64,000 bases of DNA from a bacterium (GTDB lineage: Bacteria; UBP13; UBA5359), in NCBI GenBank assembly GCA_028685295.1, contig JAQUEL010000001.1, forward strand, positions 31,865 to 95,864, written 5' to 3'. Position 1 is the stretch's first letter; every line of letters begins with the position of its first letter. The notes under the pieces are model-generated. The model saw only the letters and a list, made by a program, of their open reading frames with translations. It ran no database searches and had not been told where the DNA came from. Positions 1-46,153 of this stretch are shown here, piece by piece. The position numbers and the translations under genes are program-made.

Positions 1-244
1 CTGAAAAACCGGCACAGCGTCCCATGCGGCGTCCAAGCATATAAATGATAAGATGCTCCAGAAGATGACAAAGACCGGTACCCTCTATAATCTCTTCTTT
101 GAAATCGTGTGCGTCTGTTGCAGCTAAGCCGCATATGTGTTGCAGCTCTTCGGCAGGCGCTTCCAGAATGCCTGGGAGCGCTGTTTCCATTTTTTTTACA
201 AGGCTGGGTATGGCGCTGGTAGAGATATTTGCATCATTCCCCAT
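1..244 (-). CDS. hypothetical protein, N-terminal part (runs off window start)
   Basis: Reverse-complement reading frame opens with ATG at 244..242 and stays open to position 1 (MGNDANISTSAIPSLVKKMETALPGILEAPAEELQHICGLAATDAHDF...). No strong SD; no recognisable family. Confidence 0.3.
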   Translation of the reverse strand, partial: MGNDANISTSAIPSLVKKMETALPGILEAPAEELQHICGLAATDAHDFKEEIIEGTGLCHLLEHLIIYMLGRRMGRCAGFS

Positions 245-488
245 ATCCAGATGAATTATCGCTCTTTTTGAACCTTGCTGCAGATTACGAATGCTCTCGC
301 TTTGCGGAGTATCTTGAAAAACTATATTAATAATATGCAAAATACCTTCCCCCTTGCTACAATTATATCTTCAAGTGATAGAGGGCGCAATGACGGGGAT
401 ACGCTTGCCTCTCGGCAGCATTCCGGTATGGTTTATTGTCATGTCTATGCTATAATAATGACATTAATACATAGTTGTAGGAGTCGCA

Positions 489-2834
489 ATGGAGGCTGCA
501 AATTCTGCAAGGTATGATCTCCTGCAAATATTTAATACGCAGGATATCATTGATCTTGAAAGGGCATCAGCACATTTGATTGGTGCTGATATTCATATAT
601 GGGGTCCTTCGGGGAGCATTTCCGGTACCGGTATTGATAATACAACAATCTCCTGGGAAGAGATTGTTGCTGCCGTAGGTGGCGGTAACTTTATTCGTTG
701 CGGTATTTCCGGCAGGGATTATTGTCTGGCGCCTATTATGCTGAAAGATAAGCTGTTGGCAGCTATCCTGGCCGGGCCCTTCGATGCTATGGAAGATGAT
801 TGGCGGGCGGCATCTTCTTTTCTGACCGCCCTCAGCCGCATAGTATCCAATATCATCGCTGCATCCAGGCGCAATTTTGATCTTTATCAGCAGGCGGAAG
901 CCGATCTTCATCTTAAAGTAAAGGAACTGTCATATCTGTTTGAGACAAGTAAATCTTTGCATGGTCAACTTGACTTTGAAGAGAATTCCAACTGTTTTCT
1001 GCATAAGGTAATGGAGTTTTCCGGGGCAAAAACCGGCATAATAATGATACTCGACGAAGAGAAACAGATCATTCGTCATTTGGCATCCGCCGGTTGCTCA
1101 CCCATGATAAGAAGCATGGAGCTGTCACCGGGAGAGGATCTCAGCGGGAAGATAATAGAGACCGGTGAATACGGCATTATTGCTGATATGAACGAAAGTG
1201 AGCTTCCAGAGCGGGATGATTTTCGTTTTTCGTTGGGTAAGACGGTGACAATAATATCGATACCTTTGAAAGTTGAAGGCAGAAGCCTGGGCGTTTTGCA
1301 CCTGGGTTACAGACAGAAATATGATCCTTCCACAGAGGAGATCAACCTTCTTACTGTAGTTGCCCATGAAGCGGCTGTTGTCATAGAGCACGGGCGCCTC
1401 TTCAAGGAAGTTTCCAGGCTGGCGATAACAGACGGTCTGACCAGACTTAATAACCACAGATACCTGCAGCAGCGCCTTGATGGTGAATTGGAGCGGGCTA
1501 AACGTTTCCAGCGACCACTTTCCGTATTGATGCTTGATATAGATCATTTCAAGAGATATAACGATCGCTTCGGGCATTTGGCCGGCGATATTCTGTTGAA
1601 GCGCCTTTCCAGACTTCTTGAGAACAATACCCGGAGTATAGATATTCTGGCTCGCTATGGCGGTGAAGAGTTTTGTGTCGTATTGCCTGAAACTAGTGTA
1701 GCTGAAGCGGAATTAGTGGCTGAACGCATAAGAAGGGAAGTCAGGGAAACTTTGCATTACCATAATCAGGAGGATGGATCGGAGGGCAAAGTAACAATAA
1801 GTATAGGCATATCGACATTTCCCACCGATGGGTCCAACAAAACCATGCTTCTAGCTGCTTCAGACAAAGCGCTTTATAGGGCCAAGCAGACTGGTCGTAA
1901 CAGGGTGGTCCTGGCTTCACGCTTATCCAAGGATCTGATTGAAGGGGTTGCGGATGCTTTTAGCGGCGTCTCGGAAACCCAACAAGATAGCGAAGTTAAG
2001 GACTCTTTTCTCAATCGTTACAAGGTTCATCTTATAGTTCTGGTCGCAATGATCAACCTCTTTTCCCAGTTTATCTTTCGTTATAGCTATAATGATCTTA
2101 GTGGGATGCCCTATCTCTATTTGCATACCGTGATGGAGCTTTATTCGTCAGCGGTAGGCGTAATAATTTTTTATATCGCTTTTTCTGCTGCCAGACGGAC
2201 AGGAGATAGCCGTCTTTCTTTGTTGGGGAAGGCTTTTCTGGTAATGGCTTTGCTCGATCTTTTGCATCTCATGACATTTCCCGGGGGCATATCTATTTTA
2301 TCTCAAGGAAACGATGGAATGACTATCGGGCTCTGGATATGCTCACGTTTGATAGGCGCGTTCATGATCATTACAGCAGTCTTTATGCCTAAGAGAAGAG
2401 ATTATCTTCTTGTAGAGAACCCTCTTCAGGAGGCCCTATTGCCTATACTTATAGCATTGCTGCTTTATCTTCTGCTGGAATCATTTGCTCAGTTGAGACC
2501 GTTTACCTATATTCCTGGCAAGAGTGCAGGTGAACCGGCCATGTATATGGAAGCTATTATAGCTTTTCTTTATGTAGTGGCTGCACTGGGATTTATGAAG
2601 CTGCATCGCCAAGGCGGCGGATCTTTGATGCTGATGTTTATCATCGGTATGTTTGCTATGGCTTTTTCGGCAGTTAGTGTCGTTACTATGCTTGGAACCC
2701 ATAATTTGCTGGCGCATGTATATAAATCACTGGCCTGTTTGATAATTTTGGCCGGTTTCTGGTTGCTGGAGAGAGCCAGCGCATTAGAATCCGGCACGGC
2801 AACAGCAATATCCGGTGGCAATACTCGCCAGTGA
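489..2834 (+). CDS. sensor diguanylate cyclase: N-terminal unknown domain + GAF + GGDEF, followed by a C-terminal ~300-aa polytopic membrane domain
   Basis: 781-aa ORF. SD TAGGAG 6 nt before ATG 489. GGDEF signature RYGGEEF with DHFKRYND and KALYRAKQTGRNRV motifs. GAF-like block before it. C-terminal third is strongly hydrophobic with about 7 predicted helices. Confidence 0.85.
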   Translation: MEAANSARYDLLQIFNTQDIIDLERASAHLIGADIHIWGPSGSISGTGIDNTTISWEEIVAAVGGGNFIRCGISGRDYCLAPIMLKDKLLAAILAGPFDAMEDDWRAASSFLTALSRIVSNIIAASRRNFDLYQQAEADLHLKVKELSYLFETSKSLHGQLDFEENSNCFLHKVMEFSGAKTGIIMILDEEKQIIRHLASAGCSPMIRSMELSPGEDLSGKIIETGEYGIIADMNESELPERDDFRFSLGKTVTIISIPLKVEGRSLGVLHLGYRQKYDPSTEEINLLTVVAHEAAVVIEHGRLFKEVSRLAITDGLTRLNNHRYLQQRLDGELERAKRFQRPLSVLMLDIDHFKRYNDRFGHLAGDILLKRLSRLLENNTRSIDILARYGGEEFCVVLPETSVAEAELVAERIRREVRETLHYHNQEDGSEGKVTISIGISTFPTDGSNKTMLLAASDKALYRAKQTGRNRVVLASRLSKDLIEGVADAFSGVSETQQDSEVKDSFLNRYKVHLIVLVAMINLFSQFIFRYSYNDLSGMPYLYLHTVMELYSSAVGVIIFYIAFSAARRTGDSRLSLLGKAFLVMALLDLLHLMTFPGGISILSQGNDGMTIGLWICSRLIGAFMIITAVFMPKRRDYLLVENPLQEALLPILIALLLYLLLESFAQLRPFTYIPGKSAGEPAMYMEAIIAFLYVVAALGFMKLHRQGGGSLMLMFIIGMFAMAFSAVSVVTMLGTHNLLAHVYKSLACLIILAGFWLLERASALESGTATAISGGNTRQ

Positions 2835-2860: not shown

Positions 2861-3958
2861 ATGTCTATTGATGCATTGGTACGTTCCTGTATAGCGGATC
2901 TGGAGCCGTATGAGCCGGGAAAACCGATTGAGGAAGTGGAGAGAGAACTGGGCATAACAGGGGTAATCAAGATGGCATCCAATGAGAATCCGCTTGGACC
3001 GTCGCCATTGGCTGTTGAAGCTGTTCGCAAGGCAGCGGCTGGAATGCAGATATATCCTGACGGCAATGCTCATTATTTGAAAAAAGCACTTGCTTCCATG
3101 TTGAAAGTAGAATCTAATCAGCTCTTTATCGGTAACGGTTCGGATGAGATAATACACTTTTTAGGGATAACTTATCTTCATCCGGGAGATGAGGTAATAG
3201 TGGCTGACCCGTCATTTTCACGTTACGATTCAGCTGTTATCCTGATGAACGCCAGACTTATAAAGGTGCCTCTGAAGGATTTTCGGCATGATTTGGATGC
3301 CATGGCATCTAAATTCAGTGACAGGACAAAGCTGATTTTTATTTGTAATCCCAACAACCCGACAGGGACTATAGTAAGGCAAAATGAGGTAGAGCGCTTC
3401 CTGAAAAAGCTACCGGCCGATGCCATTGCCGTCTTCGATGAAGCATACTATGAGTATGTGGAAGCTGAGGATTATCCGGATAGTCTTCGCTATATCGGTG
3501 AAGGACGTCATATAGTGACTTTGCGCACTTTCTCCAAAATTTACGGTTTAGCCGGTTTGCGCGTGGGATATGCGGTCTCTTCACCGGAGATAATTGCTCA
3601 TCTCAACCGTGTCAAGGAACCCTTTAACGTCAATAGCCTGGCGCTGGCAGCGGCACAGGCCTCTTTGAACGATCCGGATCAGGTTAGGCGTAGCCGGCAG
3701 CTTGTTTCTGAAGGAAAGCGGTTCTTACAACAGAGCTTTACCGCTATGGGCCTGGATTATATGCCAACAGAGGCTAATTTTATTATGGTCAGGGTCGGCC
3801 TGGATTCAAGAGAGGTTTTCAGAGCCTTAATGTCCAAGGGAGTAATTATCAGAACAGGCGATATATTCGGGCTTTCGGACTATATCCGTGTTACCGTAGG
3901 CACTATGGGACAGAATGAAAGGTTTATAAAAGCCCTTTCAGATGTGCTTGAGAGATAG
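2861..3958 (+). CDS. hisC: histidinol-phosphate/aromatic aminotransferase (HisC family, class II PLP aminotransferase)
   Basis: Motifs ASNENPLGPSP, ICNPNNPTGT, TFSKIYGLAGLRVGYAV (PLP lysine region). Start moved to ATG 2861 (SD GGAGGT 7 nt upstream) rather than the ORF-track GTG 2831. Sits in an aromatic amino-acid gene block. Confidence 0.85.
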   Translation: MSIDALVRSCIADLEPYEPGKPIEEVERELGITGVIKMASNENPLGPSPLAVEAVRKAAAGMQIYPDGNAHYLKKALASMLKVESNQLFIGNGSDEIIHFLGITYLHPGDEVIVADPSFSRYDSAVILMNARLIKVPLKDFRHDLDAMASKFSDRTKLIFICNPNNPTGTIVRQNEVERFLKKLPADAIAVFDEAYYEYVEAEDYPDSLRYIGEGRHIVTLRTFSKIYGLAGLRVGYAVSSPEIIAHLNRVKEPFNVNSLALAAAQASLNDPDQVRRSRQLVSEGKRFLQQSFTAMGLDYMPTEANFIMVRVGLDSREVFRALMSKGVIIRTGDIFGLSDYIRVTVGTMGQNERFIKALSDVLER

Positions 3959-3988
3959 TAGTTTGCGTAGGAAGAAGAGGTAGAGGAT

Positions 3989-5011
3989 ATGATAATTATC
4001 ATGAAGCGGGAGGCGACTGAAGCCGATATACGTCAGGTTGTCAGCCGTCTGGGTGATAAGGGCTATGGGACTCATGTCTCCGAAGGTGTAGAGAAGACGA
4101 TAATAGGCGCTATCGGCGTACATAACGATGAGAAAGCTCTGCTGGCAGAGCAACTGGAAGCCATAACCGCTGTTGAAAAAGTCGTACCCATATTAAAGCC
4201 TTTTCGGCTGGTCGGCAGGGAATTTCAGCCTGAGAATACGATTATTAAAGTTGGCGGTGTAACCATAGGGGGAAATGCAGTGGTTATTTCCGCCGGGCCG
4301 TGTGCTGTGGAGGATCAAGAGCAGTTGCTGGAAACGGCGCAGGCCATCAAAGCTGTAGGAGCAAGCATACTGCGTGGGGGCGCATTCAAGCCCAGGACCT
4401 CTCCGTATGCCTTCCAAGGGCTTGAAGAGGAGGGGCTGAAGATACTGGCTGCGGCCAGGCAGGAAACCGGACTGCCTATTGTCACTGAAATCATGGATCC
4501 CCGCAGCGTAGATCTGGTAATGGAATATTCGGATATGCTGCAGATAGGTGCCCGAAATATGCAGAACTTCTTTCTCCTGAGAGAGGTTGGCAAATCCAAA
4601 AAGCCTGTTTTATTGAAACGGGGGCTGTCGGCTACTATTGAAGAACTGCTCATGGCGGCAGAGTATATCATGTCGGAAGGCAATACATCCGTCATACTTT
4701 GTGAGCGTGGGATCAGGACATTCGAGCCATACACTCGCAATACTCTCGATCTTAGTGCGGTGCCCTTGATTCGGGAGCTTTCTCATCTGCCTGTATGGGT
4801 GGATCCCAGCCATGGCACAGGACATTGGCGTCTGGTGGCACCGATGGCGCGTGCGGCCATAGCCGCCGGTGCTGACGGTCTGATGATAGAAGTGCATCCT
4901 CGTCCGGGTGAAGCGCTCTCCGACGGATCGCAATCACTTACATATGCAAACTTTGCCAGGTTAATGGCAGAGATCAAGCCTATTGCCGAGATTCTAGGGA
5001 GGACAGTCTAG
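3989..5011 (+). CDS. 3-deoxy-7-phosphoheptulonate (DAHP) synthase, type I-beta with N-terminal regulatory extension
   Basis: KDO8PS-like core motifs KPRTSPYAFQG, LQIGARNMQNF, KPVLLKRG, and PSH near the C-terminus. About 60-aa N-terminal extra domain. Confidence 0.85.
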   Translation: MIIIMKREATEADIRQVVSRLGDKGYGTHVSEGVEKTIIGAIGVHNDEKALLAEQLEAITAVEKVVPILKPFRLVGREFQPENTIIKVGGVTIGGNAVVISAGPCAVEDQEQLLETAQAIKAVGASILRGGAFKPRTSPYAFQGLEEEGLKILAAARQETGLPIVTEIMDPRSVDLVMEYSDMLQIGARNMQNFFLLREVGKSKKPVLLKRGLSATIEELLMAAEYIMSEGNTSVILCERGIRTFEPYTRNTLDLSAVPLIRELSHLPVWVDPSHGTGHWRLVAPMARAAIAAGADGLMIEVHPRPGEALSDGSQSLTYANFARLMAEIKPIAEILGRTV

Positions 5012-5012
5012 A

Positions 5013-5864
5013 ATGTCTCTCTACCATCGCTGTGCCATTGCCGGTCTTGGTCTGATCGGCGGCTCGCTGGGAATGGCTGTCAGACAGAACGGATTGGCCG
5101 AAGAGGTAGTAGGCCTGGCCAGATGTGCCCGGACAATTGAGAGAGCATTGGATATGGGGGCAGTGGACCGTGGAACCCTGGACCCGATAGAGGCTGTTAA
5201 GGGCGCCGATATACTTGTGCTGGCTGCTCCGGTAATGGCGTCCATAGATCTCGGCAGAATAATGATACCTCATATGAAGTCCGGATCGTTGATCACGGAC
5301 GTTTGCAGCACAAAGTCCATGCTGATTAATGAACTGAAGAAGATCAAGCCTGAAGGCGTCTCTTTCATCGGTGGACATCCTATGGCTGGTGCAGAGAAGG
5401 CCGGTATAGCATATGCCTCCCCGGATCTCTTTATAAACGCCAGATATCTTCTGACGCCGGTTGATGATCATGACGATCATACCAGCTGTTTGACGACGCT
5501 GGTGAAAGGAGTAGGCGCTTTGCCGGAGATTGTGGGCTTAGCAGAACATGATACTCTGGTAGCCATGGTCAGCCATCTACCGCATGCTGTGGCGCAATGC
5601 CTGGTGAATACTGTTGCCGATATGCAATTAGAGGAGCTGACACGGCTTGCCGCCGGCGGCTTCAAAGATATTACCCGGGTGGCCGGCAGCGATTCTAAGA
5701 TGTGGAATGATATCTATGTTAGTAATAAAATGGAAGTTCTTAAAGCATTGGCTCTATTCAGGAAGCAGCTTGATTATTTATCGGATATGATCTCCAGCAG
5801 CGACGAAAAGTCTTTACTGGAATTTCTGGAGAACGCCAAAGAATATAGGAACGGATTAAGCTGA
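5013..5864 (+). CDS. tyrA: prephenate dehydrogenase
   Basis: Rossmann motif IAGLGLIGGSLGMA at the N-terminus; TyrA-like length and core; context with aroA/DAHP synthase. Confidence 0.8.
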   Translation: MSLYHRCAIAGLGLIGGSLGMAVRQNGLAEEVVGLARCARTIERALDMGAVDRGTLDPIEAVKGADILVLAAPVMASIDLGRIMIPHMKSGSLITDVCSTKSMLINELKKIKPEGVSFIGGHPMAGAEKAGIAYASPDLFINARYLLTPVDDHDDHTSCLTTLVKGVGALPEIVGLAEHDTLVAMVSHLPHAVAQCLVNTVADMQLEELTRLAAGGFKDITRVAGSDSKMWNDIYVSNKMEVLKALALFRKQLDYLSDMISSSDEKSLLEFLENAKEYRNGLS

Positions 5865-7159
5865 TGAGCTGCAGAACGATATTACCATGTAGAAGCCTTG
5901 GTGGCGTAATCAGGGTTCCGGGTGACAAATCGATATCACACAGGGCGATTATGTTGGGATCGTTGGCAGAAGGAGATTCCGTTATTCATAATTTTCTAGA
6001 TTCGGCAGATTGCCGTGCAACGGTGAATATCTTCAGAATGCTGGGTGTTTCCATTGTACAGGAAGGCACCCATATAATTGTAAAGGGTCAGGGTGTACAG
6101 GGGCTGCATGAACCCGAAGATATTTTGCAGGTGGGCAATTCAGGTACTACAGCCAGGCTTATGTTGGGGCTTTTGGCAGGGTTGGATATGTTTGCAGTCA
6201 TAACCGGAGATGGATCTCTGCGAGAAAGACCGATGGATCGCGTTACCAGACCGCTCTCTCTAAGGGGAGCGAGCTTTCAGGGGCGCAGCGCCAGGATTTT
6301 GGCACCGGTAGCAGTCCGGGGCAGGCATCCGCTAGCAGGTTTGAGCTATAAAATTCCTGTGGCCAGCGCTCAGATAAAAACATCATTGTTGCTCTCAGGC
6401 CTCTTTGCCGAGGAACCCACTAATATATGGGAGCCGTATAAATCACGCGACCATGGAGAGCGTATGTTGGCTGCCTTGGGGGCGGATATCTCTATCGACG
6501 GCAACAGCGTTGCTCTTAACCCCGGCGGCACTATGACAGGTAGAGAGATCAGTATACCGGGTGATATTTCGTCGGCTGCTTTCTTTATGGTACTGGCCGC
6601 ATCTCTTCCCGGTGCCGCCCTCACTTTAGTCGATATAGGGCTTAACCCTACCCGAACAGGTATCATAGATGTTCTTCGTGCTATGGGCGCCGAGTTGAAA
6701 GTAGTTAATGTCAGAGAGGAAGCCGGAGAGCCGGTAGGTAATATATCGATAACCGGTGGTAAATTGCGCGGGACAATAATCGATGCTCCGCTGATACCGC
6801 GACTTATCGATGAAATCCCGGCCCTTGCCGTGGCCGCTGCTCTGGCTGATGGGGAAACGCTGATCAAGGATGCCGCCGAGCTGCGGGTAAAGGAAACGGA
6901 TAGGATTGCTTCCGTATGCAGTATGCTGCACGCTTTTGGTGTGAGAGCTATGGAAAAGGAGGACGGTATGAGAATTACCGGCGGCGGCAGACTACAGAGT
7001 GCTGTTGTCGATAGCAACGGCGATCATCGCATTGCTATGTCAGCCTCGATAGCGGCAGCCTTGGCCTCGGGTGAAAGCCGTATTATGAACACGGATTGTA
7101 TAGATACTTCCTTCCCTAATTTTTATAAGATATTGGAGGAGGTATGTGCCGGTGCATAA
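5864..7159 (+). CDS. aroA: 3-phosphoshikimate 1-carboxyvinyltransferase (EPSP synthase)
   Basis: ATGA start/stop overlap with tyrA. Motifs VPGDKSISHRAIMLGSLAEG, LGNSGTTARL, RPMDRV. 431 aa. Confidence 0.9.
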   Translation: MSCRTILPCRSLGGVIRVPGDKSISHRAIMLGSLAEGDSVIHNFLDSADCRATVNIFRMLGVSIVQEGTHIIVKGQGVQGLHEPEDILQVGNSGTTARLMLGLLAGLDMFAVITGDGSLRERPMDRVTRPLSLRGASFQGRSARILAPVAVRGRHPLAGLSYKIPVASAQIKTSLLLSGLFAEEPTNIWEPYKSRDHGERMLAALGADISIDGNSVALNPGGTMTGREISIPGDISSAAFFMVLAASLPGAALTLVDIGLNPTRTGIIDVLRAMGAELKVVNVREEAGEPVGNISITGGKLRGTIIDAPLIPRLIDEIPALAVAAALADGETLIKDAAELRVKETDRIASVCSMLHAFGVRAMEKEDGMRITGGGRLQSAVVDSNGDHRIAMSASIAAALASGESRIMNTDCIDTSFPNFYKILEEVCAGA

Positions 7160-46064: not shown

Positions 46065-46153
46065 TGGTGCCGAAGGTCGGAGTCGAACCGACACGGGGTC
46101 ACCCCCAACGGTTTTTGAGACCGTCGTGTATACCAATTCCACCACTTCGGCAC
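46065..46153 (-). tRNA. tRNA-Leu (anticodon CAA), class II with long variable arm, CCA encoded
   Basis: Reverse complement GTGCCGA...GGTTCGACTCCGACCTTCGGCACCA. 7-bp acceptor stem; anticodon loop CUCAAAA (CAA); long variable arm; T-loop GGTTCGACTCC. Confidence 0.8.

Follow-up and report, generated by a model that had tools for sequence, protein, structure and literature searches.

A gene for a membrane-attached diguanylate cyclase, in which the membrane domain follows the catalytic domain instead of preceding it, is present in the genome of a UBP13/UBA5359 bacterium. The window, i.e., the whole stretch of DNA analysed, covers 64,000 nucleotides (nt) of assembly GCA_028685295.1 (contig JAQUEL010000001.1, positions 31,865–95,864 of the forward strand). 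Positions 489–2834 (+) of this window are one genuine expressed-frame gene of 781 codons with zero internal stops, encoding an N-terminal soluble domain, a GAF domain, a GGDEF domain and a linker, followed by a MASE3 domain with eight transmembrane (TM) helices (Table 1). This order of domains is rare, and its occurrence is limited to one narrow lineage made up of three closely related uncultured lineages. A first-pass annotation of the same DNA had described a soluble sensor, GAF and GGDEF domains followed by a C-terminal membrane domain of about seven helices, and had considered the last to be either a novel output or anchor module or an undescribed fusion. The layout and its highly unusual order stand, while the novelty of the module and the helix count had to be given up, as described below.

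The fused gene is intact in three lineages

Three independent assemblies, two of JGI origin and one from ENA, encode exactly this protein. An orthologue of 788 amino acids (aa) that is 78% identical, P0002, is found in two more assemblies (a metagenome-assembled genome, MAG, from NCBI and a Logan assembly), and its junction between the GGDEF and MASE3 domains is free of insertions and deletions. A third lineage, represented by the locus L100 with 90% DNA identity, likewise encodes the GGDEF and membrane domains in a single frame. Thus, the homologues P0002 and L100 both keep the C-terminal domain, and six contigs, drawn from three lineages, have an unbroken, in-frame junction. The start site of the cyclase is common to both orthologues (MEAAN/MGAAN), and the neighborhood is the same in all three lineages: a cyanophycin-synthetase-like gene on the opposite strand, the cyclase gene, and genes for a hisC-like aminotransferase, DAHP synthase, prephenate dehydrogenase and EPSP synthase.

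Selection on the fused frame was estimated by the Nei-Gojobori method against P0002, where all ratios of nonsynonymous to synonymous substitution rates (dN/dS) are approximate because dS is close to saturation. The GAF and GGDEF domains are the most constrained parts of the protein (dN/dS of 0.03 and 0.04, respectively), followed by the linker (0.10) and the TM region (0.105), and the N-terminal domain (0.26) and the C-terminal tail (0.3) are the least constrained. The low ratio of the TM region indicates that the fused frame is read through the membrane part and that this part is constrained.

A frameshift or a split gene near the junction, which the first-pass annotation had named as a possible explanation of the layout, is not seen in any of these copies; the three identical assemblies, the in-frame orthologues and the junction without indels rule out such a sequencing or assembly artefact. 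It is extremely improbable that separate GAF-GGDEF and MASE3 genes were joined by error or that the gene is decaying: the only observation in that direction, namely that the L100 copy has lost 21 nt and carries TAG in frame at codon 173, raises the possibility that some copies are damaged, but these lesions are far from the junction, which shows no nearby indel in six contigs, and purifying selection acts on the membrane part. In L100 (1391–3715, NCBI MAG GCA_036783425.1), the TAG stands where the analysed protein has Lys173 (AAG), and the deletion is in frame and removes seven residues (289–295, AHEAAVV) at the end of the GAF domain. Errors in sequencing, splitting of the gene or its early decay could each account for these lesions.

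The C-terminal domain belongs to the MASE3 family

The membrane part matches the Pfam family MASE3 (PF17159) at 109.8 bits against a gathering threshold of 31, and the match extends over profile positions 5–217 of 226 (213 of 226 positions covered). The membrane domain of P0002 scores 97.1 bits against the same profile, and the NCBIfam model NF047874, built for MASE3-PAS histidine kinases, also matches this stretch. By these profile matches, the C-terminal domain is a divergent MASE3, a member of a described family and not a new module; a novel membrane domain can be ruled out at such a score, and the family is one of those that the first-pass annotation itself had proposed to check. Membrane domains of the MASE type are widespread among the signaling proteins of bacteria.

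A hydropathy scan gives no hydrophobic segment in the first ~510 residues, in agreement with the soluble character originally assigned to them, and eight hydrophobic segments, rather than about seven, in residues 516–762. The first of the eight (TM0, 516–536) lies ahead of the Pfam match. In the homology search described below, many of the matches listed begin before the Pfam match and take in TM0, so that the natural MASE3 unit consists of eight helices. The numbers of Lys and Arg residues per loop (3, 3, and 2 in the loops assigned to the cytoplasm, and 0, 0, 1–2, and 0 in those assigned to the outside) fit a predicted N-in/C-in topology with both ends in the cytoplasm. A domain with such a topology could be attached to a partner by either end, and its C-terminal placement would be topologically unproblematic. 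In an AlphaFold2 (AF2) model, the membrane module is all-helical, with a predicted local distance difference test score (pLDDT) of 87 and a predicted template modeling score (pTM) of 0.85, and it adopts a seven-helix bundle like that of G-protein-coupled receptors (GPCRs) with conserved charged residues. The two strings that had been quoted as carrying conserved-looking charged and aromatic positions are found in this part, LLDLLHLMTFPGG at residues 588–600 and YLLLESFAQLRPFTY at residues 660–674.

The domain order is confined to close orthologues

Relatives of residues 500–781 were collected by an exhaustive phmmer search against 1.84 billion representatives, which gave 1481 matches at E ≤ 1e-3. 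The exhaustive search was chosen because word-index searches with fragments returned almost nothing; those searches, when started from short or hydrophobic fragments, miss the parent protein and the orthologue, and are unfit for counting relatives. Among the best 150 of the 1481 matches, MASE3 starts at residues 4–79 in all of the 149 other representatives, while it occupies residues 500–781 in the analysed protein. Furthermore, in a search of 5.8 billion clusters with the full-length protein, the combination of GAF, GGDEF, and MASE3 occurs only in the protein itself and in the P0002 cluster, and the other top matches all end at GGDEF. A scan of 185,579 species-representative genomes gave no homologue with the fusion, and a literature search turned up no GGDEF protein described as having a polytopic domain at its C-terminus. 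The possibility that this is a common, well-annotated fusion, which the first-pass annotation had kept in mind, does not agree with the search of the 5.8 billion clusters, in which only the P0002 cluster shared the architecture.

The cyclase part and its N-terminal domain

The assignment of a GAF domain and a GGDEF domain with an intact GGEEF active site is borne out both by the Pfam and NCBIfam profiles (Table 1) and by reading of the motifs. The I-site (RSID) and the motifs for metal and GTP binding, DxDxFKxxNDxxGHxxGD and KALYRAK..GRN (KALYRAKQTGRN), are intact in the sequence, and the GAF domain is connected to GGDEF by the usual helix, which ends with DxLT (TDGLTRL). Most likely, the protein is an active diguanylate cyclase that is inhibited by its product at the I-site, judging from these motifs.

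The N-terminal domain, which had been described as an unknown domain of 130 aa, still has no family, and only a sub-threshold likeness to PocR can be added to that description. Its match to the Pfam PocR family (PF10114) reaches 13 bits (E of 0.07, cutoff 23.9) and covers just 40 residues. In an hhalign comparison with the PocR domains of 10 homologues (P = 0.048), residues 56–97 are aligned with PocR residues 60–102, i.e., at the equivalent position. An AF2 model made from three sequences has a pLDDT of 47 and is unusable for fold comparison, and the homology searches, including an insensitive word-index search, found no relatives of the domain beyond close orthologues. The likeness to PocR stays below the threshold by Pfam, a custom hidden Markov model and hhalign; the N-terminal 150 residues may be called PocR-like at most.

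Divergence of the MASE3 copy and its flanking segments

The domain was aligned with the 149 MASE3 representatives, and 22 positions conserved at ≥90% were obtained. Twelve of the 22 are kept in the analysed protein (H546, E550, F561, D590, H593, W616, R620, P671, E688, N739, H743, and K746), and the near-invariant polar set among them, H546, E550, D590, H593, W616, R620, E688, H743, and K746, is kept in P0002 too. By helix, the retained residues are H..E in TM1, D..H in TM2, W...R in TM3, E in TM5, and H..K in TM7. The other 10 positions are changed, and the changes are grouped in two loop motifs, TM6, G742 and a Pro after TM7. The GMP motif after TM2 is lost (M600G and P601I), as is the GxGLTxxK motif between TM4 and TM5 (G679S, L680A, T681G, and K684A). 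TM6, whose motif is SExxFT, has the changes E728A and F731V, the Gly before His in TM7 is replaced (G742A), and the post-TM7 Pro, 93% conserved in the family, is absent. P0002 lacks the consensus at all 10 changed positions, although its substitute differs at 680 (Val, not Ala) and at 768. The alignment over residues 671–688 is gapless and was checked by hand against P0122, a MASE3-only relative; such stand-alone relatives retain the family loop motifs. By the predicted N-in/C-in assignment, the lost loop motifs would face outside, and the lost Pro sits where canonical MASE3 proteins run on into their output domains.

Alignments with the orthologues divide the cytoplasmic linker into a conserved start, SRLSKDLIEGVADAF, a variable polar and acidic middle, and a conserved FLNRYK before TM0. 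The linker is 74% identical to that of P0002, and the AF2 pLDDT is 54–78 for its first blocks.

How the membrane domain may serve the cyclase

With moderate confidence, we propose that the protein is an active, product-inhibited cyclase under the control of its N-terminal sensor and GAF domains, for which MASE3 serves as a covalent membrane partner acquired by gene fusion. Cyclase activity would be set mainly through an N-terminal route, from the sensor to the GAF domain and then to the helix entering GGDEF at the DxLT motif, and the output would be capped by binding of the product at the I-site. MASE3 would hold the enzyme at the membrane, leading to local synthesis of cyclic di-GMP (c-di-GMP), and it may also affect dimerization of GGDEF through its own oligomeric state or its retained polar residues. 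Control from the N-terminal side is favored because the nearest GAF-GGDEF homologues end at GGDEF and because GAF and GGDEF are the most constrained domains. The retained polar residues and the dN/dS of the TM region suggest that MASE3 is more than a passive anchor. Its action through a rigid signaling helix is unlikely, since the linker is variable and polar, the predicted outward-facing and post-TM7 motifs are lost, and the tail is unconstrained.

It is possible, though unlikely, that MASE3 is instead a working membrane sensor that gives the cyclase a second input, in which a signal from the envelope or membrane would be received at the polar core and passed through TM0 and the linker to the dimerization of GGDEF. 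Such a sensor would account for the retention of the polar residues of the family, for a purifying selection stronger than a plain anchor needs, and for the conservation of the linker start and of FLNRYK in all three lineages. The near-invariant loop motifs predicted to lie outside (GMP and GxGLTxxK) and E728 are lost from this copy, however, and the middle of the linker between the two conserved blocks is variable and polar. Moreover, GGDEF domains are regulated through the helix that precedes them on the N-terminal side, and the literature search gave no precedent for control exerted from the C-terminal end.

Some points weigh against our proposal of N-terminal control with MASE3 as a membrane partner. 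The retained polar residues could equally mean that MASE3 still senses and regulates the cyclase. The role given to MASE3 in the cyclase is one that we infer; we know of no signal or mechanism assigned to any member of the family, and no paper on the MASE3 domain itself was found in the literature search. A 2022 review of the sensory domains in c-di-GMP signaling lists MASE-type domains among those without discernible purpose (PMC8846402). The position of the domain was inspected in the best 150 of the 1481 MASE3 matches. As to the proposed fusion (see below), the scenario draws on a neighbor-joining tree without bootstrap and on five neighborhoods, and nothing convincing as a relic stop codon, ribosome-binding site or start codon is seen in the linker DNA.

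A probable origin from stand-alone MASE3 genes

The nearest relatives of the MASE3 copy are MASE3-only proteins of 255–344 aa. When 151 domains were placed in a neighbor-joining tree (no bootstrap), the protein and P0002 joined a clade of 10, of which the remaining eight are without exception membrane-only proteins (P0122, P0123, P0126, P0128, P0179, P0237, P0243, and P0135). A signaling gene stands directly before the stand-alone MASE3 gene in three of the five neighborhoods with context. For example, the P0123 gene (locus L007) begins 4 nt inside the end of a gene for a HAMP-HisKA-HATPase kinase, and the genes for P0128 and P0243 abut the gene for a KaiC-like ATPase (PF06745; loci L015 and L017–L019). 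P0126 and P0179 are encoded in operons with members of the same KaiC-like ATPase family (PF06745) and V4R proteins. Because the copy groups with MASE3 proteins that lack output domains and whose genes adjoin or follow signaling genes, an origin by fusion is suggested: a GAF-GGDEF gene may have lost its stop codon and been read into a downstream stand-alone MASE3 gene. The order of a cytoplasmic enzyme gene followed by a MASE3 gene exists as separate genes, so that loss of a stop codon would yield the fused architecture.

The loci of the stand-alone genes show additional features. In L007 (3118–7686), the P0123 gene is followed by genes with dCache_1 and hemerythrin domains, and the cluster has three receiver-domain genes and another hemerythrin gene. 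Stand-alone MASE3 genes occur together with a KaiC-like ATPase gene, and often with V4R genes, at L015 (25–1637), L017/L018/L019 (~3216–4846), L012 (1765–4730), and L016 (3254–5572), and the end coordinate of the ATPase gene equals the MASE3 start in two cases; this looks like a conserved ATPase/V4R/MASE3 module.

These arrangements also bear on two other explanations. Rather than being primarily an N-terminal sensor, MASE3 might be a general membrane partner or effector of cytoplasmic signaling enzymes, working in cis at either end of them or in trans as a stand-alone protein beside a histidine kinase or KaiC-like ATPase, and the cyclase would represent such a partnership captured in one covalent chain, with information passing from the enzyme to the bundle or both ways. 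This generalization is improbable, but if true, it would be an initial clue to what a large orphan family of domains does. Improbable, too, is that MASE3 is the output of the cyclase, whose state, or c-di-GMP itself, would control a membrane activity of the bundle of seven or eight helices, such as passage of an ion or solute or an enzymatic step, and that stand-alone MASE3 proteins are likewise controlled by the neighboring kinase or KaiC-like ATPase. The position of the stand-alone genes downstream of or next to cytoplasmic signaling enzymes, the GPCR-like bundle with its charged residues and the absence of an output domain after MASE3 in this protein would suit an output role. On the other hand, MASE3 precedes further sequence in 140 of the 149 listed representatives (>300 aa), and this sequence, where checked, consists of histidine kinase and PAS output domains, which fits an input role. 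Besides, the membrane module gave no match to a transporter or enzyme family, and no c-di-GMP-binding motif was identified besides the I-site.

Features of the gene and its neighborhood

Table 1. Features of the cyclase gene and the adjoining gene in the window
Feature	Residues	Position (nt)	Strand	Basis or remark
Extended −10 promoter-like element TGcTATAAT, 5′ of the cyclase gene		448–456	+	Putative; consensus match read from sequence
Shine-Dalgarno sequence AGGAG		479–483	+	5 nt ahead of ATG at 489; read from sequence
Complete open reading frame (N-terminal domain, GAF, GGDEF, linker, 8-TM MASE3)	781 aa	489–2834	+	Stop included
N-terminal soluble domain, possibly a divergent PocR-like sensor, then helix into GAF	1–150	489–938	+	Sub-threshold PocR similarity
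GAF domain	171–300	999–1388	+	PF13185 (GAF_2), E 6e-14, 52.9 bits (cutoff 28.6)
GGDEF diguanylate cyclase domain	312–472	1422–1904	+	PF00990, E 4e-50, 170 bits; TIGR00254, 180 bits
I-site RSID (RxxD)	382–385	1632–1643	+	Five residues ahead of the GGDEF motif
Active-site GGEEF	391–395	1659–1673	+	
Cytoplasmic linker (~40 residues)	473–515	1905–2033	+	Alignments with orthologues
8-TM membrane module (TM0 and seven helices of the MASE3 profile)	516–762	2034–2774	+	Hydropathy; PF17159
Pfam MASE3 match	541–756	2109–2756	+	PF17159
Short, poorly conserved cytoplasmic tail (19 residues), no output domain	763–781	2775–2831	+	37% identity to orthologue
hisC-like aminotransferase		2861–3958	+	Own ribosome-binding site GGAGG at 2849–2853; starts 26 nt past the cyclase stop

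The cyclase gene is followed at 2861–7159 by genes for the hisC-like aminotransferase, DAHP synthase, prephenate dehydrogenase and EPSP synthase, and then cytidylate kinase, in an order kept in the three lineages. No terminator-like site was seen between the cyclase and the hisC-like gene, and cotranscription of the cyclase with the aromatic amino-acid genes is possible. Upstream, the cyanophycin-synthetase-like gene (PF18921) lies on the minus strand at 1–340; its product is 202 aa in two assemblies, and 101 aa with no Pfam match in the 171-kb JGI contig (L003, 7241–7546, versus L004, 907–1515), where the gene may be disrupted or miscalled. In L003, a DDE transposase gene (PF01609) is found a few kb upstream of the start of the window. 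A terminator-like hairpin with a T-run is located at 156–189 (+). The window is otherwise housekeeping chromosome (topA, proS, nusA, infB, fhs, and others), with nearly all open reading frames of ≥200 aa on the plus strand, a GC skew that is positive in the sampled first 8 kb and a single tRNA gene, tRNA-Leu (CAA), at 46065–46151 (−).

Implications

A natural MASE3 that is attached by its N-terminal end and has no output domain following it shows that the module can be joined to a partner by either end. The tie of this attached form to a stand-alone clade encoded beside kinases and KaiC-like ATPases suggests partnerships between MASE3 and the enzymes encoded upstream, and the association of stand-alone MASE3 proteins with neighboring signaling enzymes is the wider lead. 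For c-di-GMP biology, the protein is a candidate for membrane-localized synthesis. The general importance is limited, as the fusion occurs in three closely related uncultured lineages and contains no new domain; its novelty is the order of the domains.

Comparison with known systems

Canonical MASE3 proteins share with the analysed copy the number and order of the helices, including the extra helix ahead of the profile, and the polar positions. They score 200–218 bits, and the analysed copy about half of this (110 bits). In the canonical proteins, MASE3 is N-terminal, with output domains after it, and keeps GMP, GxGLTxxK, E728/F731, G742, and the post-TM7 Pro, whereas the analysed copy is C-terminal, has nothing following it and is without these motifs.

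The layout itself has a precedent in a membrane-bound globin-coupled sensor of Geobacter sulfurreducens, in which a globin is joined to a C-terminal 4-TM PsiE domain (PMC8076648). Here too, a soluble N-terminal sensor is followed by a C-terminal polytopic domain, but the sensor and membrane families are others and there is no GGDEF domain; the analogy is one of layout only.

For residues 1–480, the closest counterparts are cyclases with PocR, REC, or Cache domains ahead of GAF and GGDEF. For example, P0042 and P0072 (PocR-GAF-GGDEF, 531 aa) match in layout and spacing, are 35–40% identical in the core and have the same active-site and I-site motifs. These cyclases end directly after GGDEF, unlike the analysed protein, whose N-terminal domain also stays below the PocR threshold.

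Stand-alone MASE3 proteins differ from the analysed copy in being separate polypeptides and in their partners: in place of a GGDEF protein, these are a histidine kinase or else KaiC-like ATPases together with V4R proteins. Nevertheless, they are the nearest to it both by score and in the tree, and, like the analysed copy, they have no output domain after TM7.

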